Source: Candidatus Poseidoniaceae archaeon
GTDB taxonomy: Archaea; Thermoplasmatota; Poseidoniia; Poseidoniales; Poseidoniaceae
Assembly (NCBI GenBank): GCA_965662895.1
Contig: CBFIJH010000010.1
Coordinates: 9,975-73,974, forward strand
Length of the DNA stretch: 64,000 bases
Direction of reading: 5' to 3'
Shown here: positions 42,316 through 55,692 of the stretch, in pieces
How the letters are laid out: each line of letters opens with the position of its first letter
Numbering within the stretch: the first letter of the stretch is position 1
Notes under the pieces: generated by a model
Database searches by the model: none
What the model was told of the DNA's origin: nothing
The model's input: the letters and a program-made list of their open reading frames with translations, nothing else
Program-made: the position numbers and the translations under genes

Positions 42316-44232
42316 ATGATACCAGTTCTCATCATGATGCTCCTTGCTCTAATGAGCCCATCGATTGAAATGTCCACTTTGGAAGATGGCGACGCTGTAC
42401 AAAACACATCCGGACGTCAAGGAAGTCTCGATGTTGATTGCAGTGGATACACATTTGAGGACCTGTTTGAATACAATTTTGCGCTCTTCACTCTTGACGT
42501 CAACGACGATTGGGCGACTGGCGTAATGGATGCGAAAGCCTGGGTCAACGGGAGTAAATCTGCCATTGTACGAGATAACCTCGACAGCCTCTTCGAAGGC
42601 GTTCCCGGTGGCGATGATGACTGGATTTCCACCGACGAGCGAGAGGCAGTACGCCAGATTGGCCCGAGATGTATTGCTGACATGGAAACACGGCTTGGAA
42701 TCCGTGAGGGGCCATCTCATCGAGGCAATGTCGATTGGAATGACCTTGAGTTCGTTGAAGACGGTATTGCACTTGACGAAGTAAACCTCGTTCCTGCAGG
42801 ACACGAGCAAGAACGAGATTGTACTGCCCTACTTTCCGATGATGGATGCAAAGAGGTTCCAGTATCCATAACAGATGATCTTGAGATTCATCTCCTCCTT
42901 GCAGACGATCAAAACAACAACGTGCGATTTGACCAACTTCCGAATCAAGGGAGTTCGAATTTTACGCTTGCGATGAACATTACCAACATTACCGACGCAC
43001 GATTGGTCATGACCTTCCCTGTTCAGCAAGGCCTTCGAGTTGCCGAAATGGGTTTCTTTGATGACGGAGTGCTCAACGAAAACCTTGCAGCTCCTGTTAG
43101 CGAATTCCTTCCTGATGGAAGACTACGTATCGTAGCGGATGTTGATTACCCTCTTGGCTCCTATCCAATGATACGAAATCTCTTCGTTGACTTTACAACA
43201 ATGGCGCCATTCACGAACGATAACCCAGTGTGGAGTGCTACGGCTCCTGCCGATGGGACAATCATCCCTGTCGGAACAACCAATGGCGAGATGCTTGCAA
43301 CTGAAGCTGCAGGCATGTGGGTGATCGATGAAAGTGGTTGGAGTTTGCAATGCGACTTCGCAGATGCAGGTTGGGATGTTCGAATGGATGAAAATGCCGC
43401 ACTGTTCGTAACGGCAAACGGTGATTCAGCCGTAGCCCAATGCGCAGGTGTTGATGCGTATGGTGCCGAAACAGAAGAACATCGGAACTACACGTTTGGC
43501 AAAGTGATGGACGCGAGTGCAGTCTTGTCAACCGATGGAGATGTCATTGAGTTTTCGCCAACCTCGACAGGTCTTGTTCCCAGCGTGACCGTAACGGCAC
43601 ATGCTCACCAGATGTCAAAGACAGGACCTGATGCAACCGCTGTTGCAAATGCGAACGGTGTGGTCATGGAACTGTCCATGTCTGGTCTTTCACCCGGAGA
43701 TGTCATGATCATGGGCACGGCTACCGCAAATGGTATGCTTGACTACAACTTCATGCTCGACTTAGGAATCGAAAAAATGAACAAACCTCCTGCCATTACC
43801 ATCAACACAAACCTTCAGGGAGAAGAAGCTGAATGGGAACTCGATGGATTGAAGTTTACACTCAATGGAAATGTGATTGATCCAGACGGCCAGGACGTAA
43901 CCATGACGCTCAGTATTTGCAACGGTCAAACTTCGAATTTCAATCGAGACAATCTTGCATGGGAAATTCAAGTTTCGATTGCAAATTGCATCCAGAATAA
44001 TGTTGAATCACCATACACAGTTACCATCATCGCAGAGGATGAGTCACTGGAAAAAACCACCCTCACCATCGAAGTTGCTGATCCAAACACAGGAGGCAGT
44101 GATGCGAGCGATGACTCAAGCAATTCCGATACTGATGCAGAGGGGGGTAACATCCTCCCTGCACCGGGATTAATTGCAACCCTCATGATTGGATTTTTAG
44201 CGGCAGGATGGGTTTCATCCCGCCGAACTTGA
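42316..44232 (+). CDS. Secreted acidic Ig-like surface protein with C-terminal LPAPG-TM-RR sorting-like signal
   Basis: Signal peptide; NDNPVW and NKPPAI...DPDG Ig/cadherin-like starts; S/D linker + LPAPG + TM + SRR. Confidence 0.78.
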
Positions 44233-44269
44233 CCAACAGACTCAAACATGGTTGGCAGACAGAGCGGGA

Positions 44270-45238
44270 ATGAGGGCTATGTTTCGAGGCACTGTTGACC
44301 GCTCAAGCCATGAAGGTGGCCTCCTCGTGAAATTCAGTGGTTCATCACCCGCTCTCGGATCAATTATCGTTCGTGAAGAGGATGGCCATTACATTGGCAA
44401 AATTGATGCTGTTCTCGGTTCAACAGACTCACCATTAGCGCATGTTGCTCACCTCGATCGTAAGCAGGACAATGCATCCTTCTTGGGTTCAACTGTCATC
44501 GTTCGAGCCAAGAAAGAACGTGAAGAACGCCCTCCTCGTCATGAGCAACGAAACGATCGTCGACAAGAACGAAATGAGCGTTCCTTTGACCGTCGAGATG
44601 GCCGTTCAAGAAATGACGCTCAAAAAGACGATTGGGTATGTGCATCGTGTGAAAATGTCAACTTCTCATGGAGAAAGGAATGCAACAGTTGCGGTAAATC
44701 CAAAGATGGTAATGTGAAAGAATACAAGTCATCGTTCAGAAATGACAACCATTCCAACAATCGCCGTGAACGGCCTCGTCAGGAAAACCATGGCCGGAAC
44801 GACTGGGAATGCCCTGCATGCAACAATATCAATTTCTCATTCCGAACGGAATGCAACAAATGTGGAAAACCGAAACCAGGGGGTCGAGGCGGTGGACATT
44901 CACGTGGAGGACGTGATTCCAACCGTCGTGGTGGTTTCCGTGGAGGACGTGATTCTAACCGACGTGGTGGAAACCGAGACAGAGGGCGAAACTTTGGAGG
45001 AAATCGAGACGGTCGTGATTCCGACCGTCGTGGTGGAAACCGAGACAGAGGGCGAAACTCTGGAGAAAACAGAGGTGATCGAGATTCAGGACGAGGTCGG
45101 TCAAATCGTGATCGTGACAATCAACGTCCGAATGAGCGCTATCGAAAGGCTCGAGGAAAGCGACCTGGACATGCACACAATCGAGGTCCACAACCTATCC
45201 GGCCGCGGCGATATCAACGAAGAGATCAAGACGATTGA
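44270..45238 (+). CDS. Gar1/Naf1-like domain + two RanBP2-type zinc fingers + RGG/RD-rich disordered tail (putative RNA-binding protein)
   Basis: N-terminal GTV...GLLVK...PALGSIIV...[18 protein letters not shown]...LGSTVIV resembles archaeal Gar1; two W-x-C-x2-C-x3-N-F-x2-R-x2-C-x2-C fingers; RGG repeats. Confidence 0.82.
44904..45090 (+). repeat. Coding tandem repeats: 36-bp [10 protein letters not shown] unit x2 and 66-bp [11 protein letters not shown] unit x2
   Basis: cgtggtggaaaccgagacagagggcgaaact at ~44963 and ~45029; ggaggacgtgatt at ~44906 and ~44942. Confidence 0.8.
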
Positions 45239-45249
45239 GGTGAAAAAAC

Positions 45250-46287
45250 GTGACAGCAGAATCACACTATCTCGATGCACTCGAAGCACTGGAAGCGGAT
45301 GAACGAGATGAAGCATTGAAGCATGCTCGAAAAGCTGTCAAGCTCGATTCGGAGCATGCTGATGCTTGGAGAATCATCTCTGATGCAAGCCTTCCTGGTC
45401 AACGGAAACAGCCAACACTGAAGCAGGCGGCTTCTTCTCTTTCTGCCGCAAAAAAAGTTGTCGCCCTTCAACCTGATGATTTGGCTATGTGGGTTCGCGG
45501 TGGGCGTTTGCTCTCAGATGAACTTGGCCTGTATATGGACGCCCTTCAGTGGTGGCAGGATGCTCGACATCATGCACCTGACGAAGTAACACCCATCGTT
45601 GAGCAAGCAGCAATATTGGCAGATATGGGACTTTACGGAGAAGCGAGTGAACGACTTCAATCCATCTTCGATGAGAATATGGATCTTGCTACAACACAAT
45701 ACGCACGGGTCGCTCGTTTGCATCAAATGTGTCAATTGGCCAGTGAGCAACCCTCCTCTGAGCACTTCAAACCGTGGGAAAAGCATCACGATGGTTGGGA
45801 AGCAATCAAATTGCGAATGAACAAACCTCCGATTAGTGAATCGAAGATTTTCCTTCTTGTTACAACACCTATTCTGATGCTTGAAGTCATCATGGCGCCT
45901 CAAGTCTTTGGTTCGAGTTTTGGAGGATTCTGTTTAACATCCGCACTTATTTTGTTCACGGTTATCATCGGAATGCGAATCTCACGACGATGGTTCCAAC
46001 GACTGAATCGTCCTGCATTCAATCTCCTACGGGCCATGGACTTCGAAACCGCAACCGGATACGTCGTCATTCCTGAAGAAATCCGTATCTCCAAACTGTC
46101 CATGTTTATCTTGAGCAGAAGACCACCTGCGTTTCAAGAACGCATGCTGAAGATTGTAGAATCGAAAGAGACATTCAAGGGAGATTGGAAACCAAAACTC
46201 CCCGATTTTTCTTCCCATATTACGGATATGGAACCTTTCTGGGAAGAAGACTCTGAGGATGAACTCAGTTCATTCGAAGAGGAATAA
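45250..46287 (+). CDS. TPR-containing membrane protein
   Basis: TPR-like helices (ALKHARKAVKLDSEHADAW; VVALQPDD), two TM segments, acidic C-terminus. Confidence 0.72.
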   Translation: MTAESHYLDALEALEADERDEALKHARKAVKLDSEHADAWRIISDASLPGQRKQPTLKQAASSLSAAKKVVALQPDDLAMWVRGGRLLSDELGLYMDALQWWQDARHHAPDEVTPIVEQAAILADMGLYGEASERLQSIFDENMDLATTQYARVARLHQMCQLASEQPSSEHFKPWEKHHDGWEAIKLRMNKPPISESKIFLLVTTPILMLEVIMAPQVFGSSFGGFCLTSALILFTVIIGMRISRRWFQRLNRPAFNLLRAMDFETATGYVVIPEEIRISKLSMFILSRRPPAFQERMLKIVESKETFKGDWKPKLPDFSSHITDMEPFWEEDSEDELSSFEEE

Positions 46288-46313: not shown

Positions 46314-47561
46314 TCAGAGCGCAGCTTGGAATGCATCGATGACTTCTTGTTTTAGTTTCTCCCAAGGAAAGGTCGCTCCCGAAGGTTGACGGCCGAAGTG
46401 ACCACCTGCAGCAGTAACACCGTAGATAGGTGCTGCGAGCCCGAGATCACGAATGATATGCCCCGGTTTGAACGAAAAGTGCGCATCAACAAGTTGAGCG
46501 ATGGCATCGTCTGAGATTCTACCACTTCCAAAGGTGTCAACACGGATACTAACAGGGTCTGCAACACCAATCGCATAAGCCAGTTGAATCTCGCATTCTG
46601 TCGATAGCCCTGCGGCTACGACGTGTTTCGCTGCCCAGCGGGCAGCATAAGCAGCAGAACGATCGACCTTTGTCGGGTCCTTGCCAGAAAACGCTCCACC
46701 ACCATGCCGTCCACGACCACCGTACGTATCGACAATGATTTTTCGTCCAGTTAGGCCTGCATCTGCATAAGGACCACCTGGATCTGCGAACCGACCGGTT
46801 GAATTTACGTGAATTGTCGTCTTCTCTTCAAGGATGAGAGTTGATGGGACAACAGGTTCGATGATGTGTTGAATGACTTGTTCACGTATCCAAGCCTGTT
46901 CTGCCTGCTCTGAGCCAAATTCTGCAATCATATCTTGATGCTGAACTGCAATAACGATGTTATCGGCATAAAGCGGTTGACCGTCCGTGCCATGCATCAG
47001 TGTCACCTGAGATTTCGCATCAGGTCGAGCCCATGGAAGTGTTCCATCGAGACCCGCTTTGCTCACTTTACGAGTTAACGCTTGAGAGAGTGCAATAGCC
47101 AAAGGCATCCAACGTCCTTGATGTTCGGGATAAGATTCGGTCTCATCGCATGCATAACCGAACATGAGTCCTTGATCGCCAGCACCTTGCTCATCAATGG
47201 ACTGAACAACACCACGGTTGATATGAGCAGATTGATTTGTGATTAATTCCGTCACCTCGCACAGTTCTTCTGATGTTGCATCCATACCAATACTGTGCGA
47301 TGTGTATCCAATGTTGGCTGCAGTTTTTCGGGCGATGGCGACATAATCTGGAGCATCGATACCGGTTGCAAGTTTCACCTCACCAGCAAGCACAATGTGT
47401 GAACGATCTTCTCGACCTTTTACGAGAGTTTCAACAGCAACCTTCGCTTTTGGGTCAAGTGAGAGACAAGCATCAACAATGGCATCAGAAATAGCATCGC
47501 ATAATTTGTCAGGGTGGCCTGCAGCCACTGACTCAGAGGTAAACAACCAGTTTTGTGCCAT
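46314..47561 (-). CDS. metK: S-adenosylmethionine synthetase (bacterial/eukaryotic type)
   Basis: FTSESVAAGHPDK, GAGDQGLMFG, PDAKSQV, DAGLTGRKIIVDTYGG, HGGGAFSGKDPTKVDRS. Confidence 0.96.
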   Translation of the reverse strand: MAQNWLFTSESVAAGHPDKLCDAISDAIVDACLSLDPKAKVAVETLVKGREDRSHIVLAGEVKLATGIDAPDYVAIARKTAANIGYTSHSIGMDATSEELCEVTELITNQSAHINRGVVQSIDEQGAGDQGLMFGYACDETESYPEHQGRWMPLAIALSQALTRKVSKAGLDGTLPWARPDAKSQVTLMHGTDGQPLYADNIVIAVQHQDMIAEFGSEQAEQAWIREQVIQHIIEPVVPSTLILEEKTTIHVNSTGRFADPGGPYADAGLTGRKIIVDTYGGRGRHGGGAFSGKDPTKVDRSAAYAARWAAKHVVAAGLSTECEIQLAYAIGVADPVSIRVDTFGSGRISDDAIAQLVDAHFSFKPGHIIRDLGLAAPIYGVTAAGGHFGRQPSGATFPWEKLKQEVIDAFQAAL

Positions 47562-47690: not shown

Positions 47691-48965
47691 TCAGGTTCCG
47701 ATGGTGTAATCATCCTGATAGGCGATTTGGGCATCGGTTAGTTTGTCGATTCGGAAGCCAAGTGTTGCGAGTTTTGTTGTTGCAAGTTCTTCATCTTGCT
47801 CTCTGGTAATATCGTAGACTTCAGGACCCATCGAACTCCCGTCTTTTGCGAGACGGCAAAGAGAGAGGAACTGATTTGCAAACGACATGTCCATCACCTC
47901 TGAAGGATGTCCTTCAGCAGCGGCAAGATTGACCAGACGACCCCGTGCAAGCAAGAAGATTCGACGACCATCAGGCATGAGGAATTCTTCGTTATCTTGT
48001 CGAATGGTGCGGACAGATTCAGCCTGTGCTTCCAAATCTGTAATTTTTATTTCACAATCGTAATGCCCTGTATTGCAGACAATTGCTCCGTCTTTCATAA
48101 CGGCAAAGTGACGATCAACAATGATGTCTTCCATACCGGTTGCTGTACAGAAGATGTCACCCAAGGCTGCTGCTTCATCCATTGGCATAACACGGTATCC
48201 GTCCATAACAGCACGTAGTGCTGCAAGGGGGTCAACTTCAGTGACAATCACGTTCGCTCCAAGCCCTTGAGCACGCATAGCAACACCTTTTGCACAATGC
48301 CCATATCCTGCAACAACCATGGTTTTTCCTGCAATCAATACTGAGGTCGCTCGCAAGATACCGTCCATTGTTGATTGGCCTGTCCCATAGACGTTATCAA
48401 AATCCCATTTTGTAATGGCGTCATTGACAGCTATGACAGGGTACTTGAGATCACCTGCAGCAGCCATAGCTCGAAGACGATGTACACCAGTTGTTGTCTC
48501 TTCAGTTCCACCGATGACACCTTCAGCATATTCTGAGCGGTCACCATGAACCCGAACAATCAAGTCTGCACCATCATCAAGAGTCAGCGTCGGTTTGAAC
48601 TCGAGCGTCTTATCGATGCACCAATAGAAGTCATCAACACTTTGTCCGTGCCATGCATAAACTGAGTATCCTTCACGAGCAAGCCAAGCAGCGACGTCAT
48701 CTTGTGTCGAGAGAGGGTTGCAGCCAGACCAGGAGAGTTCCGCACCTGCTGCTGCTATCGTCTCGATGAGGACAGCCGTTTCTTTGGTCACGTGAAGGCA
48801 TCCAGCCACTCGCATGCCAGCGAGCGGCTTGCTTCGTTCTGCTTCTTCTCTTAAGGCAGAAAGCACCGGCATTCTTGAGCGTGCCCAGTCAACTCTCAGT
48901 GATCCTTCTTCAGCAAGCTCAATGTCTCGGACAGCGTAGCCGTCACCGGTATCCAAACCTTCCAT
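47691..48965 (-). CDS. ahcY: Adenosylhomocysteinase
   Basis: GCLHVT, CNPLSTQD, DDGADL, GGTEETTTGV, KWDFDNVYGTGQS, GRLVNL, GHPSEVMDMSF. Confidence 0.96.
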   Translation of the reverse strand: MEGLDTGDGYAVRDIELAEEGSLRVDWARSRMPVLSALREEAERSKPLAGMRVAGCLHVTKETAVLIETIAAAGAELSWSGCNPLSTQDDVAAWLAREGYSVYAWHGQSVDDFYWCIDKTLEFKPTLTLDDGADLIVRVHGDRSEYAEGVIGGTEETTTGVHRLRAMAAAGDLKYPVIAVNDAITKWDFDNVYGTGQSTMDGILRATSVLIAGKTMVVAGYGHCAKGVAMRAQGLGANVIVTEVDPLAALRAVMDGYRVMPMDEAAALGDIFCTATGMEDIIVDRHFAVMKDGAIVCNTGHYDCEIKITDLEAQAESVRTIRQDNEEFLMPDGRRIFLLARGRLVNLAAAEGHPSEVMDMSFANQFLSLCRLAKDGSSMGPEVYDITREQDEELATTKLATLGFRIDKLTDAQIAYQDDYTIGT

Positions 48966-49026: not shown

Positions 49027-52000
49027 CTATTGTTGCTGTTGCGCTTGAGCAGCATATTGTTGAGCATACTGTGCAGCCGTTGCCTCATCGTAACCTTGCG
49101 CTACGAACTGTTGGTAGTACTGATTGTAGTATTGCGTGTACAAATCATTGCTCGCAGCGGGTGCAGCAGCAGCGGCAGGAGCCGCAGCAGCCTGTCCAAC
49201 ATACTGAGCGGCATAAGCTCGTGCGGTTTCCTCAGGATATCCTTGAGCAATCAATTGTTGCACATACTGTTCAGTCATGTCCATCTCTTGTCCATAACCA
49301 GCAGCAGCTGCACTCAAGTTGTCGATCTTCTCGCCGCTACCTCCACGGAGGAAGAGTACGGAAACAACGAGGAGCACCAAGACTGAGGCGATGATTCCTA
49401 TGATGAGCATCATGCTATCGTCTTCTGTTTCTTCGCTTGATTGTTCGTTGTTTGACTGTTCAGTCCACTCGCCGGTTTCTGGGTCGTAGGTCCAATCACC
49501 ATTTTCTGAAATCCAATCACACTGCAAGGTGGTAGTGTTCCAAACGAAACCACCGCCGGCAAGGGCAGCGCTTGAATTGGCAAGAACGCCACGACAGATA
49601 CTCAATTTCACTCCTACCGACTTGGTAAGGTTGTCCGACCAACGCTCGTCATCACCTTCGTACACTCGAACCCAAATCTCTACTACTTCGCTTGTGTTGC
49701 TGTATCGGTCGCCGATGAAGAGCGACAATTCGAACGATTCTGAGTCGGAAAGAGCTTCCGTTCGGTCAAATCTGTTGTTGGATTGAAGATTGTACTTCTC
49801 AATTGCAGATGCTTTGAAATCATCCTTGTTGAATGCTGCTTCAACATAGACTTCACCAGTTTCAGAACCTGAGAGTATGGTTCCAGTAATGGTGTAGGTT
49901 TGATCGGAAACAAATCCGGACTCATTTGAGAAATCATCGTATTGGACTTCAGGCATTTCATCACCAAAACCATCAGGAACGACGACGAAATACATTCTGT
50001 ATTTGTCAGAGAATTTGCCGGATGCGTCGTAAACGCGCAGTTCCATACGGATTTGAGACTCCGCTGTTCCTGAATCATCGACGGTTACGTTCTTGAATCT
50101 GTAGGAGAAGAGTCCATTGCTTGCAGCGGTTTCCTCGAATGTGTGACCTTCCAAATTGAACGATGTGTCACCATAAGGCGCATCAAAGAAGATCTTCCAT
50201 TCGTAGGTGACAATACCGTTGCTTCCGTCGATAGCGTCCGCATCGAAGGATTCACTAGCATCAAAGTGAACAACAAGTTCACCAGATTCAGGTAAAATGA
50301 TTCGGTTGACGTCCCATTCCGCGCTCGATACGGTCTTCGTTCCAGTGAACTCAATGTTGTCAACATACTCATCTCGCATGTCAATGCTCATGTTTGCTTC
50401 AGGTGCAAATGCATCGGCCAGTACATCGTTTGTTTCAACAACTACCGAGATGATTCGAGCGTGACCTGCCTCATCATGAAGCATGAGCGTCACAGTCCAT
50501 TGCGCACCCTGGAGACAACCTGTTGCTGAAGACAGGTCGGTCTTACAGAAGGTTGCTGTCGGGGACGCTTCGGAGATATGATCGGTTCCAGTCGCCATCG
50601 TCTGTCCCATCCAGTCGGTTGGGCCATCAAGAATCCAGTCTGCAGTTAATGGTACAGAGGTCCCTGTCATGTAAGCGAAATTGACCGTCGCATCGCTCTT
50701 CATGTAATGCGTTGCGTATCCACCGGTCGATGGGTCGATACCTGGCATCTCATCGTCAATTTTGAGGCCAAGATCTTGTCCCATCGAGCCAAAGCCTTCA
50801 GGATACGGCGTTACTGAGAATTCCAACATGTTTCCGAGAAGCGGGAAGGTTGTGCTGTCGGCTCGTGAGGAATACGTTGCAACATCGATGGTCGAGACAA
50901 TCATACCACCTTGGTAGTAGCTGCACGTACCCATAATGACGTCTTTGCTGTTTTCGCTTGTTCTCAAGAGGCTCTGGAAGTATCCACCGTCCTCCATGTA
51001 ACCGTTGCAAACACCAGGAACATTCTGTGTGCTGACCGAGTTCGTATTGAGAACCGCAGTTGCAACCGTTCCATCGCCCTCAAATCCTTGGAAGGCTGTC
51101 GTTGAAACGTTGTCCATGATTGGGTGGAACGGATCAGCGATGTCGAGACCTGTGTACAGAATCTTCGTTCCGGGTGTGTCTCGGCTCTGAACGTCCATTC
51201 CGAACGGCAATCGACCGTTCAATCCGACATCAAGACCGTAAATTTGCGTACCTTGTGGACCAAGGTGTGCTTGGACGGTACCACCAGCGGACATGAACGA
51301 CTCGAGAGTCTGTCGGTTGGCAGTTGACCCCAATTTTTGATAATAGCCACGGCCACCGCTTTCAACGTCTTTCGCTGCTACATCATCCTGCCATGGAAGG
51401 AGAATCTTGTCGTAATGCGTCATCCATCCAGAATCGAGATACGTGGTCCAATCGTTGATTGCAAACTGTGTGTAACTCATTCCTAGCGTTTGCAAGTCTT
51501 CCTTGATGGTGGAGGTTCGAGCGGTTGAATCGCTTAGGATAGCAACATCGATCTGATCGGCAAAGGTCGCGTGGAAATAACGAACGTTTCCACTCGGGTT
51601 TCCGTTTGCAAGTTCTGCGTGGAAGCTGATGTTGTAGGTATGGCCATCCATCCAATTGTTGAAGGAAGGGAACGTCAAATCAATTCGTTCGTTTGAGGCA
51701 AGTGCCGTGGTCGTCGAAGAGGATGATGCTTGATGGACTTGCATTCCGTCAGTTTCGTCAAAGACCGTCATGTAGAACATGTAATCTCCGCCGAGCACTC
51801 CGTTTGTTGCCCTGAGGTCCCAACTGTGGGCTAGACTACCATCGATTGGTAGAACACACTCGTAGGTACCATCATCAAGACATGCAAGTGTGCTCGGTTT
51901 ACCGAGCGTGATGTCGACAGATTCGACGTTGAAAATCACCTGTTCGATGTTGTTCGAATCGCTCAACTCATTGTCACCAAACCAAGGGACTCCCGCTGTC

Positions 52001-55000
52001 GTGTTGTCAAAAATCGTTTCAGCACGAATCATGTAAACGCCTGAGAAGAATTCGTGGTTTGCAACGGTTGTGGTCGCAACGTCTTCTGCATCAACGTTGG
52101 TGCGGGACGTGGTGTAGGAGGCTTCTTCAAAGAACGTAAATTCTTGCAGTGTGATGTTGTTAAACGCCACACCCTTGAAGCCATCGTTGACCCCGTTTCG
52201 ACCATCGCCATCGCTCTGGAATTCAAAGTTGATGTCAACCGTTGAACCTGCTAATGAGATGCACTCGCGGAACCACTGTAGGCTGTCGGCGGCTGTGTTG
52301 TTGAGAACATAAAGATGCGTCAAGTCAATGCTTCTGGTAAGTACAAGATCGTCTGTGTTGAAGAAAACGTTGTAATTTCCACCGGAGCCATCCGTGCTTG
52401 ATGAATCGCCAATGAATGAGATTTCTGCTTGATTGACGGATTCGCTTGAGTTTGTTACCCCATCATCGTTGTCGTCGTTTCGGCATGTGCCATCCTCGTC
52501 GTAATCGTTCCACTGTCCGAGAAGAACCGCTGAGTACGAATCTGAACCCTTGGTGAAGTCGACGTTAATCGATGCGTAGTCGTTCACGTCGACAATCGAG
52601 GTTCCATCGACATCGATACCATAGAAGGTGTCAGCGTAGTACTCGAAGTTCAACGAAACGAAATCTCCGGACATTCCTGTCAAATCGACGTTCGGAATTG
52701 TGAGCGTTTCATTTTCCCAGAGGTCGCCATAACCTTGCGTAGCAGTATCACAGGGGTGGCCAAACCAATACGCATTGTTGTTGAAGATTGGATCGTTGCA
52801 CGTGGCTTCGTTGTAGATTGCTCCTTGTGGGTTGCCATCATCGCTGTAGACGTATCCTTCAGCTCCACCTTCGAACGATTCCTTACAGATAACCGCTGGT
52901 GCGCTACACAACACATCGGACGGTGTTGCAGAGAAGACTGTCGCTTCAATGTCAAAGTCAACCATGGTATTGCCCCAGTTGTTGGTGACAACATCGATGT
53001 CAAACAGCCCTTCAGCATACAATCCACCAGGATTGAAGTACTCGATTCCTTCGATGGTAGGGTCGTAGAGGTTGAACGGTTGTACGTAGCCGATGATGTC
53101 ATCGTTAACGGATTGCTCATCCCATGCATGATTGCTCAGTGTTGCTGAAATTCGGTAGATTGTATCGTTGAGTAGATTTGCAGAAATGTTTGCAGTCTCT
53201 GTTTCACCCGGCCCAAGATTCTGGAGACTGAGTTGGCGCTGAAGCGTTTGTGGGTTCGGGAAATATGCAGTGTTCTGTTTGTAGATGGTAACGTTATCAA
53301 TGGCATATCCATCACGACCGGTCCACAGCGACTCGTTATCATCAGCGATGGAACCTTCAAACCCGGAACGGAGTCGGAAACGAATGTCGACCGTTTCACC
53401 GGCCCATGGTGAAAGATCGAATTCACCGACGCCATCTTGCGTAAAGTTGTCCCATCCATAATATGTACCGGAGCTGTAGAGGCCGTAATAGTAGACACCT
53501 TCGGCGACACCTCCGATGCCGTTGATCTTGAACGCCCGATCGTTGTCGTACCCGCCCCAAAGAGTGGAGCCTGAAAGACAAGCACCAGCAACTTGTGCAG
53601 AGGTTGGACATGCGATGACCGACCATCCAGTTTCGTCAGACCCGACTTCAATCATCGCCACATCGTCCCATAGTTCTCCAATGAGCCATTGTCCAGTTGT
53701 AGCGTCAACAGAACCCAAGGCTCCAAAGCCAAGGTGGCGGAACAACTCAACGCTGAGGAAGGCTCGGTCAGAGCCAGTCAAATCAACATCTGTCAATGTC
53801 AAGGCATCGTCCCAATGTCGGCCGTAACCAGACCAGAGGTCTCCACTGCTGTTGGTCTTGTATTCCCCTGCCCACATGAAGTCGGTTGGGTTCTGGTAGT
53901 TCGCAGATAGGTTCGGCGCGTTGTTTCCGTCGGTTGCACCCACGGAATTGTTCGTTTCAAGAATCCAGCTCGAGGATTGATCGACATACTCGTCAAAGGA
54001 CCACGTACATCCTCCACCGCAACCTGTTGCATCTGCAGGAGTATCGAAGTCGTGCGTAAATACTGTGGAATTCGATGAGTTGGCTTCGTCGACGACCTTG
54101 AGTTCAACATCGAGCGTCGCTGTTTGTGTGAGCGTGTCCATTCCAGTGTTTGTGACGGTGACATTGATTTCACGAGTACCTTCACCGACTGCACCAAAGA
54201 AACGGTCAACAGGATTGATGTCTATGCCAGTAATCGCAATGTCTTTGTTGTCCATTTCGACAACAGTGACATAGTCGTACTGACCATCCCATCCAAGGTT
54301 ATCAATCCAACTTCCGAAACTGTAGGACGCATGTCCAACAACGATATCAGGTGCAGAGTTCGAAGCACCCGCAAGTTGTCCAACAACGGCGATGTTTGGT
54401 CGACGGCCGGCCTCGTAGGAGAGTGGTGTCACGTAGCCACCCGATCCATCGGAGAGGGTGACTTGAACAGTTGTTGGGAAGTTGAGCCAGAAGGAGGATG
54501 TTGAACCCCCAGCTGAGTCCGATGTGTTTTGTTGGTAAGCAACGGTTGGGTTGACGAAGTCTGGTTCGCCATCGCCGTTGATGTCTGCGACAGTGACGTC
54601 ATAGGAGATGTACGGCCCAAAGTAAGCAAGTGTGGGATTCGACCAGGTTCCAACCGTTGATGATGTTGAATACGTGATGTTCTCCAGATTCCCTTGCGTC
54701 ATAGCGATGGTGTCGATTGTTCCATCGTCATCGATATCACCGATGTCGAATGCTCCAAACGTGTTGGCCATGTTCACGACGTGAGTGTCGATTTGATTGG
54801 TTCCGTAAGCATAGGTTGTTGGGAATTGGTTTGAAAGACAATTGAATTCGATGATTGTAACGTTGTCGTCGTTACCCGGGTTTGTGGTTTGACCGGTCGT
54901 GTAGTCAACACCTTCGCTCCTTAGGAGCCAAATGTCCTCGTCGACGCAGGTGGTTCCAATCCCTTGTGTTTCGCCCCAATCGCCGATTTCGAGATCTCTG

Positions 55001-55692
55001 TAGGCGTTCGTGTTCGACGTTCCCAACGATGTTGTCAGTGGCGTTGTACTCGCTCCGATTGGGCCGAGGTAGGTGACGACACGTTGATTTGAGATATCGT
55101 TGAGCAGGTCGAGGATAACGACGTCATCGTTTCCATCCTGGTTAACGTCCCCGACGGCGAGGTCCCATGCCCAAAAGTGGGTGAATCGTTGGCCGATGGT
55201 GAAGGAGTTGCTGCTGCACCCATCGTTTTCAAGGATGGTCAAGTTACCTGGTTCGCCAGCCGGCGCACCGTTATCGTCTCTCTTGAACGGGTTGTTTCTC
55301 TGGAAAATGACGATGTCTGCCACACCATCGCCATCGAAATCACCGACTTCGAGGAATTGAACGTTGGAGAACTCATCCCATTCTGCGTTACGCGAGGTGT
55401 TCTTCGAAACCCATACGTCGTAGCGCTCAGAGAAATCTCCGTTACCATCGTTGAGGAGAATGGAGATGGTGTGCGTACCGTCTGTTGCAATCGCCATGTC
55501 GTTGTGACCATCGCAATTGAAGTCGGCAATACCGATGTCAATCGGATCACGATTTGTTGTGTAATTTCGGGCAGCGGAGGCGCTTGCATTGGTTGCAAAT
55601 GCAGCCGTCGTCGATAGAACCATAATGAGAACGAGGAAAATACTCTGAAGTTTTGACCCGATTTGGTTTGTCTTTGTTTGCATCAATATCAC
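49027..55692 (-). CDS. Giant (2221 aa) cell-surface protein: FG-GAP/VCBS repeats, jelly-roll and Ig/PKD-like domains, C-terminal TM and Q/Y/A-rich cytoplasmic tail
   Basis: Signal peptide; DFNCDGHND, DFDGDGVAD, DVNQDGNDD, DIDDDGTID, DINGDGEPD; FDLSPWAGETVDIRFR; FDASESFDAD...YEW; TM IIGIIASVLVLLVVSVLFL. Confidence 0.85.
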   Translation of the reverse strand: MILMQTKTNQIGSKLQSIFLVLIMVLSTTAAFATNASASAARNYTTNRDPIDIGIADFNCDGHNDMAIATDGTHTISILLNDGNGDFSERYDVWVSKNTSRNAEWDEFSNVQFLEVGDFDGDGVADIVIFQRNNPFKRDDNGAPAGEPGNLTILENDGCSSNSFTIGQRFTHFWAWDLAVGDVNQDGNDDVVILDLLNDISNQRVVTYLGPIGASTTPLTTSLGTSNTNAYRDLEIGDWGETQGIGTTCVDEDIWLLRSEGVDYTTGQTTNPGNDDNVTIIEFNCLSNQFPTTYAYGTNQIDTHVVNMANTFGAFDIGDIDDDGTIDTIAMTQGNLENITYSTSSTVGTWSNPTLAYFGPYISYDVTVADINGDGEPDFVNPTVAYQQNTSDSAGGSTSSFWLNFPTTVQVTLSDGSGGYVTPLSYEAGRRPNIAVVGQLAGASNSAPDIVVGHASYSFGSWIDNLGWDGQYDYVTVVEMDNKDIAITGIDINPVDRFFGAVGEGTREINVTVTNTGMDTLTQTATLDVELKVVDEANSSNSTVFTHDFDTPADATGCGGGCTWSFDEYVDQSSSWILETNNSVGATDGNNAPNLSANYQNPTDFMWAGEYKTNSSGDLWSGYGRHWDDALTLTDVDLTGSDRAFLSVELFRHLGFGALGSVDATTGQWLIGELWDDVAMIEVGSDETGWSVIACPTSAQVAGACLSGSTLWGGYDNDRAFKINGIGGVAEGVYYYGLYSSGTYYGWDNFTQDGVGEFDLSPWAGETVDIRFRLRSGFEGSIADDNESLWTGRDGYAIDNVTIYKQNTAYFPNPQTLQRQLSLQNLGPGETETANISANLLNDTIYRISATLSNHAWDEQSVNDDIIGYVQPFNLYDPTIEGIEYFNPGGLYAEGLFDIDVVTNNWGNTMVDFDIEATVFSATPSDVLCSAPAVICKESFEGGAEGYVYSDDGNPQGAIYNEATCNDPIFNNNAYWFGHPCDTATQGYGDLWENETLTIPNVDLTGMSGDFVSLNFEYYADTFYGIDVDGTSIVDVNDYASINVDFTKGSDSYSAVLLGQWNDYDEDGTCRNDDNDDGVTNSSESVNQAEISFIGDSSSTDGSGGNYNVFFNTDDLVLTRSIDLTHLYVLNNTAADSLQWFRECISLAGSTVDINFEFQSDGDGRNGVNDGFKGVAFNNITLQEFTFFEEASYTTSRTNVDAEDVATTTVANHEFFSGVYMIRAETIFDNTTAGVPWFGDNELSDSNNIEQVIFNVESVDITLGKPSTLACLDDGTYECVLPIDGSLAHSWDLRATNGVLGGDYMFYMTVFDETDGMQVHQASSSSTTTALASNERIDLTFPSFNNWMDGHTYNISFHAELANGNPSGNVRYFHATFADQIDVAILSDSTARTSTIKEDLQTLGMSYTQFAINDWTTYLDSGWMTHYDKILLPWQDDVAAKDVESGGRGYYQKLGSTANRQTLESFMSAGGTVQAHLGPQGTQIYGLDVGLNGRLPFGMDVQSRDTPGTKILYTGLDIADPFHPIMDNVSTTAFQGFEGDGTVATAVLNTNSVSTQNVPGVCNGYMEDGGYFQSLLRTSENSKDVIMGTCSYYQGGMIVSTIDVATYSSRADSTTFPLLGNMLEFSVTPYPEGFGSMGQDLGLKIDDEMPGIDPSTGGYATHYMKSDATVNFAYMTGTSVPLTADWILDGPTDWMGQTMATGTDHISEASPTATFCKTDLSSATGCLQGAQWTVTLMLHDEAGHARIISVVVETNDVLADAFAPEANMSIDMRDEYVDNIEFTGTKTVSSAEWDVNRIILPESGELVVHFDASESFDADAIDGSNGIVTYEWKIFFDAPYGDTSFNLEGHTFEETAASNGLFSYRFKNVTVDDSGTAESQIRMELRVYDASGKFSDKYRMYFVVVPDGFGDEMPEVQYDDFSNESGFVSDQTYTITGTILSGSETGEVYVEAAFNKDDFKASAIEKYNLQSNNRFDRTEALSDSESFELSLFIGDRYSNTSEVVEIWVRVYEGDDERWSDNLTKSVGVKLSICRGVLANSSAALAGGGFVWNTTTLQCDWISENGDWTYDPETGEWTEQSNNEQSSEETEDDSMMLIIGIIASVLVLLVVSVLFLRGGSGEKIDNLSAAAAGYGQEMDMTEQYVQQLIAQGYPEETARAYAAQYVGQAAAAPAAAAAPAASNDLYTQYYNQYYQQFVAQGYDEATAAQYAQQYAAQAQQQQ

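Follow-up and report, generated by a model that had tools for sequence, protein, structure and literature searches.

Can a gene that begins like Gar1 and ends in zinc fingers and an arginine/glycine-rich tail be the Gar1 of its archaeal host, and what would such an arm bring to the particle? The question arises at a locus of Candidatus Poseidoniaceae archaeon (contig CBFIJH010000010.1 of assembly GCA_965662895.1), within a stretch of 64,000 nucleotides that was analysed as a whole and is called the window here. Gar1 has been described as the sole protein of the H/ACA ribonucleoprotein (RNP) that does not touch RNA, and its Arg-Gly-Gly (RGG) regions as an addition found in eukaryotes, the role of which is unclear (PMC7991803 and PMC8096250, cited throughout, like PMC6384913, from excerpts). 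The gene studied here encodes an 82-amino-acid (aa) N-terminal barrel, two RanBP2-type zinc fingers, a tail rich in R, G, D and N, and a basic C-terminal motif, the last being a conserved feature absent from the preliminary description of this DNA that a model had made from its letters. We conclude that the gene is probably a divergent Poseidoniales orthologue of Gar1 that gives the H/ACA RNP its own arm for binding single-stranded RNA. Its parts are as follows, in window coordinates; residue numbers refer to the 322-aa form that starts at ATG 44270.

44279..45238, + strand: Gar1-like coding sequence, 319 aa plus stop; the family alignment starts at M-F-x-G.
44279..44524, + strand: Gar1-type beta-barrel core (residues 4-85), predicted from AlphaFold2, Foldseek, VIA and hhalign.
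44525..44626, + strand: Arg-rich linker 1 (residues 86-119; R 32%); predicted local distance difference test (pLDDT) score <50; mean identity in the family 33%.
44627..44710, + strand: RanBP2-type zinc finger 1 (residues 120-147); PF00641; pLDDT ~91; FUS-like N-F-S-W-R.
44711..44797, + strand: N/R-rich linker 2 (residues 148-176), from composition and pLDDT <50.
44798..44884, + strand: RanBP2-type zinc finger 2 (residues 177-205); PF00641, best stretch 178-204.
44885..45139, + strand: R/G/D/N-rich disordered tail (residues 206-290), from composition and pLDDT 32-37.
44951..45087, + strand: tandem duplication in the tail, 66-bp unit, 2.1 copies, 84% identity (Tandem Repeats Finder).
45140..45235, + strand: basic C-terminal motif (residues 291-322; core R-G-K-x-x-G-H-A-H-N), from family conservation.

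The gene lies in a single long open reading frame (ORF) at 44252..45238 (+), which the ORF list counts as 328 aa from TTG; the alternative upstream starts are this TTG at 44252 and ATG 44270 (322 aa). We take 44279..45238 as the gene because the family alignment begins at the second ATG, 44279, three codons past 44270, and because a database protein that is 98% identical (P0001) is 319 aa long. In a sequencing-run index, at least half of the sampled words of the stretch were held by 19 runs, and the 20 holders came from 8 studies. Contigs from three runs of other studies cover the region 44100-45400 with no insertions or deletions; their long pieces differ by 0-3 letters each, and they break only within the 66-bp repeat. 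This independent coverage excludes an assembly artefact. The named homologues and the genome records are Poseidoniales, in agreement with the non-Asgard archaeal host that had been proposed at the outset.

The identity of the N-terminal domain (N-domain) was approached through its fold and through sequence profiles. In an AlphaFold2 model built from a 26-member family alignment, residues 1-85 form six strands with block means of 78-92 in pLDDT, both fingers reach about 91 and the remainder is disordered. Foldseek against the Protein Data Bank (PDB) placed three chains of P. furiosus Gar1 at the top, 2ey4_D (E 4.3e-5), 2ey4_C and 2hvy_B, the matches to this protein having E values of 4e-5 to 2e-4, target template-modelling (TM) scores of 0.83-0.87 and root-mean-square deviations (rmsd) of 1.5-1.7 Å. 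With VIA, 2ey4_C was aligned over 73/73 residues (Z 12.2, rmsd 1.4 Å, ~19% identity) and P. furiosus Gar1 3hay_B over 74/74 (Z 11.4); yeast Gar1 (Z 9.4 and 9.3) and Naf1 (2v3m, Z 9.3) followed, and unrelated small barrels scored 8.6 or less.

Profile comparisons led to the same family. A hidden Markov model (HMM) made from Poseidoniales N-domains found the Gar1 ORF in 29 of 30 canonical Thermoplasmatota loci and nothing else among 923 ORFs, and hhalign matched an 18-member N-domain alignment to 22 canonical Thermoplasmatota Gar1 sequences with 97.6% probability (E 3e-12, 78 columns). A search of 1.84 billion representative proteins with the N-domain profile returned only 133 at E <=0.001; the six low-end entries of 75-103 aa were scanned, and five of these match Pfam Gar1, two of them above cut-off. 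Weak matches to Pfam Gar1 are present in 19 of the 26 family members (best E 3.7e-4), in a phylum within which this model is insensitive, only 26 of 201 genomes exceeding its cut-off. A tree from a short alignment, with a midpoint root only, placed the Poseidoniales N-domains in one clade (100/100 support) apart from eight canonical Gar1 proteins, and the barrel carries an extra invariant S-H-E-G-G stretch specific to the Poseidoniales family. On this profile and model evidence, the N-terminal domain is a divergent Gar1 homologue with a predicted Gar1 beta-barrel fold, as had first been read from the letters.

The preliminary description had left it to be seen whether this is the only Gar1 of its genome and whether Cbf5 and Nop10 accompany it. 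The ORF is the only Gar1-like match in the window's genome (1.86 Mb, 92% complete), and both partners were found: Cbf5 at 312 bits, with a catalytic motif, G-H-G-G-T-L-D-P, that is invariant in 24/24 Poseidoniales Cbf5 proteins, and Nop10 as an 83-aa zinc-ribbon ORF. Two L7Ae-family genes complete the set, so that the gene holds the position of a Gar1, a single copy in a genome with Cbf5, Nop10 and L7Ae partners. The 180-aa ORF directly upstream of Cbf5 looks like a nucleotide (cytidylate) kinase, and the ORF directly upstream of Nop10 was read, from its sequence, as aIF2-alpha. In most Thermoplasmatota outside Poseidoniales, judged from a sample of 201 genomes of the phylum, Gar1 is short and stands alone, its trimmed ORFs measuring 69-104 aa. 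Among the 36 Poseidoniales genomes of this sample, all 17 weak Pfam Gar1 matches are the extended gene, and no second, canonical Gar1 was found among the Pfam Gar1 matches.

What, then, does the rest of the protein consist of? Pfam detects two stretches of PF00641 (Zn_ribbon_RanBP; E 1.4e-11, 43.9 bits against a cut-off of 27), and both finger strings quoted earlier are present letter for letter in the translation. The family profile, searched against the PDB, retrieved the FUS finger 6g99 as its best match (E 1.7e-9), then the multi-finger RanBP2/Nup358 (E 2.6e-8, six finger stretches), ZNF265/ZRANB2 (E 8e-8 and 4.8e-7), RBM10 (E 1.6e-6) and also RBM5; protein-binding fingers (Nup153, TAB2, HOIL-1, Mdm2) rank lower, at E 0.001 or weaker. 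The zinc-knuckle pattern W-x-C-x2-C-x10-C-x2-C occurs in both fingers; in the 120 listed homologues it marks 277 fingers, 1-5 per protein.

According to the excerpts of PMC6384913, the structure of ZRANB2 with RNA shows two Arg positions hydrogen-bonded to two guanines, FUS and EWS have Trp at the first of these positions and keep GGU/GGG specificity, an Asp contributes to RNA affinity, and a finger with Lys and Ser at the two Arg positions does not bind RNA. Across the same 277 fingers, Trp, the second Asn, Phe/Tyr and Arg are each conserved in 277, the first Asn in 270 and the Asn after the third Cys in 269, and in 270 the conserved Arg follows a Phe, Arg or Trp. Finger 1 has the Trp-Arg pair of FUS and finger 2 has Phe-Arg. 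In the family alignment, the Asp preceding Trp is invariant at finger 2 and at least 90% conserved at finger 1, and the invariant columns of finger 2 comprise D, W, C, N, N, F, R, C, N and C. The Pfam score, the rank of FUS in the PDB search and the conservation of RNA-contact residues support, at the level of sequence, the earlier assignment of the fingers to the FUS/ZRANB2 RNA-binding class of RanBP2 fingers.

Further searches with the finger region added little: no homologue was found among proteins of 565-2000 aa, and comparison with a protein atlas reached 0.76-0.77 with small Zn_ribbon_RanBP clusters (two mostly eukaryotic, one without recorded taxa), below the 0.9 level, and was not used. 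Variant fingers were seen in seven proteins of the N-domain profile list (P0152, P0160, P0161, P0193, P0205, P0209 and P0210), one type reading N-H-N-Y-A with C-N-R-x-x-C and another L-P-T-W-V-C without the N-F and Arg signature. Judging by these changes, the variant fingers may differ in binding partner.

The fingers are embedded in fast-changing, strongly basic sequence. Tail residues 206-290 are 32% R, 26% G, 13% D and 13% N, with 6 RGG, a net charge of +14, and 2 Phe but no Tyr or Trp in 85 residues; over residues 86-322 the net charge is +30. There are 18 RG/GR dipeptides, and about 150 residues are predicted to be disordered by AlphaFold2. Mean identity to the window protein is 67% in the barrel, 56-73% in the fingers and 71% in the C-terminal motif, compared with 30-34% in linkers and tail. 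The tail had been described as made of recently duplicated units, which the 66-bp unit present in 2.1 copies at 84% identity bears out, and repeat number changes fast across the family.

The C-terminal motif, by contrast with the linkers and tail, is well conserved: G300, H301 and P307 are invariant in the family alignment, their neighbours nearly so, and the motif was found in 99 of the 120 listed homologues. It does not recur elsewhere in the window's genome, and a comparison with shorter proteins returned two fragments of the same family and no others; endings related to it occur in some genera of the second large Poseidoniales family. A derivation from the G-K-x-K-R-R-type tail of canonical Gar1 was suggestive and was dropped, the motif being too short to test. 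We also set aside a resemblance of its ending to a FUS-like PY-type nuclear import signal, the P-Y dipeptide being absent. No other gene of the window's genome has such fingers or a comparable RG density, except for the tail of a DEAD-box helicase. This helicase (locus L138, G000:C3:67-1827, - strand) combines a DbpA RNA-binding domain with some 60 aa of Gly/Arg-rich sequence at its end; apart from it and the Gar1-like protein, no product of the genome has an RG-rich tail.

Surveyed across Poseidoniales, as had been suggested beforehand, the architecture turned out to be order-wide and typical of the order as a whole. We refer below to the window's family as f1 and to the second large family as f3. 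The N-domain was found in 142/151 Poseidoniales genomes, in 56/58 of those of high quality and in 22/22 genera; by family, it is present in 72/74 genomes of f1, 2/2 of f2 and 67/74 of f3. The 638-aa upstream gene is kept in 29/29 f1 loci and the 345-aa downstream gene in 23/29 f1 and 17/20 f2/f3 loci, the misses falling mostly at locus ends. Because gene order is conserved in this way, we regard the genes as positional orthologues.

The fingers are distributed less evenly. In a sample of 301 genomes of the phylum, Pfam fingers at E <=1e-4 were found in 40/41 genomes of f1, 14/22 of f3 and 0/8 of a sister family in the same class, and the remaining 229 genomes gave one finger match above cut-off. 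That exception (locus L130, G173:C2) is a 465-aa proline-rich membrane protein with a C-terminal RanBP-like ribbon (32.5 bits) that is without the N-F and Arg signature of RNA-contact residues. At the level of loci, strict fingers (1-4) occur in 28/30 of f1, the two exceptions being truncated at a contig end or interrupted by masked bases, and in 7/20 of f2/f3, the rest having K/R/G-rich tails of 60-130 aa or variant fingers that the pattern missed. When 185,579 prokaryote species, each represented by a single genome, were scanned with a strict back-translated pattern of the finger, at least 119 stretches matched. The 80 that were listed comprise 41 records titled Poseidoniales, Poseidoniaceae, Thalassarchaeaceae, Poseidonia or Marine Group II, 38 with generic archaeal titles and 1 metagenome-assembled genome (MAG) named 'Fretibacterium'. 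Among these 80 loci, finger and N-domain share one open frame in 66; 13 others seem to be fragments of this gene that were cut, masked or frame-shifted, 10 of which show the barrel end or a C-terminal end of the family. The 'Fretibacterium' record (L214), the sole non-archaeal one among the matches listed, is a 2640-bp contig with an AT-rich, Asn/Lys-rich ORF of 345 aa; its finger ORF looks eukaryotic and is probably bin contamination. A scan of viral contigs with patterns from the N-domain only found no relative. An early gain with losses and repeated gains would each account for this distribution, and the data favour neither; nor do they favour a transfer of the fingers, from or to eukaryotes, over an independent origin, or the reverse.

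That archaeal Gar1 is a bare core, as the preliminary description put it, is the textbook statement, and excerpts of PMC7991803 likewise describe archaeal Gar1 as being without the GAR (glycine/arginine-rich) regions of eukaryotic Gar1; it holds less strictly within this phylum. Canonical Thermoplasmatota Gar1 often ends in a short basic tail, and in family f19 (loci L131-L136) an otherwise canonical Gar1 has a fingerless R/K/G-rich C-terminal tail of 60-70 aa. Gar1 tails are therefore not confined to Poseidoniales.

Taking the observed domain identities, conservation, gene content and distribution together, we propose the following role. The barrel would keep the part of Gar1 on Cbf5, to which it presumably binds: Gar1 makes no contact with the guide RNA; it binds Cbf5 on the catalytic domain and, through its control of the thumb loop, regulates the release of product (excerpts of PMC7991803, PMC8096250). 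In the systems studied, the loop that Gar1 holds also governs the loading of substrate. The C-terminal arm, with one to five fingers of the putative GG(U) class, fast-evolving R/G/D/N-rich spacers and a conserved basic end, would be what a Gar1 that normally does not touch RNA has gained for RNA binding, with a predicted preference for GG(U). Such an arm could tether, deliver or retain the Cbf5-Nop10-L7Ae-guide complex at a G-rich single-stranded substrate or at precursor rRNA. The H/ACA particle might thereby acquire a direct affinity for single-stranded RNA with G-G, for example unfolded pre-rRNA, with a possible effect on pseudouridylation. By analogy, the arm may parallel the role proposed for the GAR/RGG regions of eukaryotic Gar1.

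Several observations weigh against this reading. The Gar1 sequence pattern that had been pointed out is real but weak: Pfam PF04410 gives E 0.0088 and 16.2 bits, below its cut-off of 29.3, and the NCBIfam equivalogs NF009631/NF009629 give E 0.0026-0.0043 and 17-18 bits, short of cut-offs of 132-139, such curated-family cut-offs being an operational detection criterion for Gar1 and not a biological one. Against PDB sequences, the N-domain profile has P. furiosus Gar1 as its top four matches, at E values of only 0.015-0.11, and the full-length profile retrieved no Gar1. The canonical G-P-V-x-x-P-Y is altered to G-S-T-x-x-P-L-A-H in the Poseidoniales family, and a long branch separates its clade from canonical Gar1; the protein may therefore have changed its partner or its function. 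Fingers are missing from 8/22 genomes of f3 and from both f2 loci examined, a patchiness from which it follows that they are not indispensable to the core role. No RNA-modification gene adjoins the Gar1-like gene, which has no genomic link to Cbf5, Nop10 or L7Ae. Rfam gave zero matches in the window at gathering thresholds, no search having been aimed at H/ACA guide RNAs. Finally, the RNA run X20 contributed one contig of 157 nt over 44301-44453 with zero differences, too little to claim expression.

The divergence of the barrel could also mean that it has been repurposed and now works away from Cbf5, as a stand-alone RNA chaperone, a ribosome-assembly factor or an mRNA-binding protein. The sub-threshold Gar1 scores, the altered motif, the long branch, the extra invariant S-H-E-G-G and the missing genomic link to Cbf5, Nop10 and L7Ae all suit this possibility, which we nevertheless consider unlikely: it would leave these genomes without a Gar1 despite an intact Cbf5 and Nop10, the fold match spans all of P. 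furiosus Gar1 at an rmsd of 1.4 Å, and fingerless orthologues at the same locus retain the barrel. A different doubt concerns the fingers, since many RanBP2-type fingers bind ubiquitin or RanGDP and the Nup153, TAB2 and HOIL-type fingers do appear, lower down (E 0.003 or weaker), in the same PDB search. If the fingers were protein-binding (NZF-like) or structural and the tail a spacer, the arm would recruit a protein partner. This seems very improbable, as the best named matches besides Nup358 are the RNA binders FUS, ZRANB2, RBM10 and RBM5, the surroundings are strongly basic (net +30 over residues 86-322), and the ZRANB2/FUS RNA-contact residues, with roles as given in the excerpts of PMC6384913, are almost invariant in 277 fingers. 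To a chimeric assembly, or eukaryotic contamination fused to an archaeal gene, we attach practically no weight. RanBP2 fingers are overwhelmingly eukaryotic and the L214 contig resembles eukaryotic contamination, but the fused frame recurs in 66/80 listed genome records, in 28/30 f1 loci and in contigs of three other studies, the flanking genes are conserved and the GC content of the gene (0.50) is that of its surroundings (window, 0.49); together, the fused frame across genomes, the conserved neighbours and the independent contigs rule this explanation out.

Two further proposals go beyond a tethering arm. In addition to its role as Gar1, the protein might act as the scaffold of an RNA-dependent condensate, a nucleolus-like compartment for ribosome biogenesis, in line with its 1-5 fingers, some 150 disordered residues, 6 RGG and 18 RG/GR dipeptides, with the fast change in repeat number and with the tie between RGG domains and eukaryotic phase separation (excerpts of PMC8096250). 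Many orthologues of the second family, however, carry short K/R-rich tails without fingers. The tail itself is broken by Asp, Asn and Ser and has 2 Phe in 85 residues, and aromatic residues help RGG regions of the FET type to condense; we rate the scaffold as decidedly unlikely. The other proposal is a joint one, in which Poseidoniales independently evolved a eukaryote-style Gar1 by capturing FUS/ZRANB2-type fingers and growing an RGG-rich tail, so that the multivalent protein organises H/ACA RNPs and nascent rRNA into an RNA-dependent, nucleolus-like condensate in a non-Asgard archaeon, the finger capture reflecting transfer to or from a marine eukaryote or a retained ancient module. As a whole, we regard it as quite unlikely. 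The identification of the gene as a divergent Gar1 with a putative RNA-binding arm remains the reading that we prefer.

The gene sits between two others that run in the same direction.

42316..44232, + strand: upstream neighbour, 638 aa, with a hydrophobic C-terminal anchor; no Pfam match.
45250..46287, + strand: downstream neighbour, 345 aa; no Pfam match.

Both flanking genes stay beside gar1 across the order. The 345-aa product has a helical N-terminal part, a possible membrane-spanning hydrophobic stretch and an acidic end. Because its start lies 12 bp past the gar1 stop, gar1 and the downstream gene may be co-transcribed. Further along, a gene for S-adenosylmethionine synthetase (PF00438, PF02772, PF02773) adjoins one for S-adenosylhomocysteine hydrolase, at 46314..47561 (-) and 47691..48965 (-). 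The three-domain S-adenosylmethionine synthetase is the type of bacteria and eukaryotes; in most archaea another MAT family takes its place. An ORF of 2221 aa follows at window positions 49027..55692 (-).

Poseidoniales are among the most abundant planktonic archaea, and databases already hold hundreds of such proteins, variously named 'zinc finger Ran-binding domain-containing protein', 'hypothetical protein' or, at JGI, 'rRNA processing protein Gar1'. The present identification corrects this divided naming. A literature search, which did not cover supplements, found no paper on a Gar1-RanBP2 fusion or on the Gar1 of Marine Group II/Poseidoniales. If our reading is right, a whole archaeal order would have given Gar1 an RNA-binding arm by a route different from that of eukaryotes, and RNP subunits of archaea and eukaryotes would clearly have evolved in parallel. 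The gene offers a simple natural system for studying how guide-RNA-directed pseudouridylation is affected by an RNA-binding arm on Gar1. As the strict finger type belongs to this gene alone in 79/80 listed prokaryotic records, it also defines a prokaryotic clade of FUS-like fingers for studying the origin of the module. Both aspects should interest researchers in RNA modification and archaeal cell biology.

Among known proteins, the closest counterpart is the archaeal Gar1 of P. furiosus (2EY4, 2HVY, 3HAY), with which the Poseidoniales protein shares the same predicted six-stranded barrel, profile homology and the status of sole copy. It differs from it in being only about 19% identical, in falling under the family cut-offs and in its altered G-P-V-x-x-P-Y. 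Whereas the archaeal Gar1 proteins of the phylum measure 69-104 aa, the Poseidoniales protein adds an arm of about 235 aa with two fingers, RG-rich spacers and the end motif. Naf1, a eukaryotic factor for H/ACA assembly, is alike in having a Gar1-fold barrel (2v3m, Z 9.3) with long disordered flanks, but it scores below true Gar1. Where Naf1 occurs, Gar1 is present too and takes its place, whereas the Poseidoniales genome has a single gene.

The arm recalls the FET proteins (FUS, EWS, TAF15) and ZRANB2, whose fingers for single-stranded RNA stand beside RGG or RS regions. It belongs to their finger class, keeps the RNA-contact positions, has the FUS/EWS-type Trp-Arg pair in finger 1 and is flanked by sequence of RGG type. 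Two fingers with an Arg-rich tail presumably resemble the architecture of ZRANB2 itself. The first knuckle is C-x4-C in the aligned FUS and ZNF265 fingers and C-x2-C in Poseidoniales, a spacing that we take to be that of ZRANB2 finger 2. Unlike in either group, the fingers are attached to an H/ACA subunit and the host is a prokaryote. The comparison with FET proteins made in the preliminary description thus holds for the finger-plus-RGG module, but not beyond it. A FET protein combines a low-complexity domain, an RNA recognition motif (RRM), RGG sequence and one finger; here the N-terminus is the Gar1 barrel in place of a low-complexity domain, and Pfam, run on the full protein, found no RRM and no domain beyond the Gar1-like one and the RanBP fingers.

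Eukaryotic Gar1 (yeast Gar1p, human GAR1) likewise combines a Gar1 core with disordered Arg/Gly-rich sequence. Its GAR regions lie on both sides of the core (excerpts of PMC7991803), and this eukaryotic arrangement is not found in the Poseidoniales protein, which starts at the barrel and has its extension at the C terminus only. The excerpts of PMC7991803 and PMC8096250 mention no zinc fingers on eukaryotic Gar1, and the Poseidoniales tail differs further in being R/G/D/N-rich with few aromatics. In yeast, the RGG domains of Gar1 influence both the dynamics and the turnover of the RNP, and contact between them and substrate RNA is probable (excerpts of PMC8096250). The Poseidoniales extension, which on present sequence evidence evolved inside an archaeal order, may serve the H/ACA particle in a comparable way.

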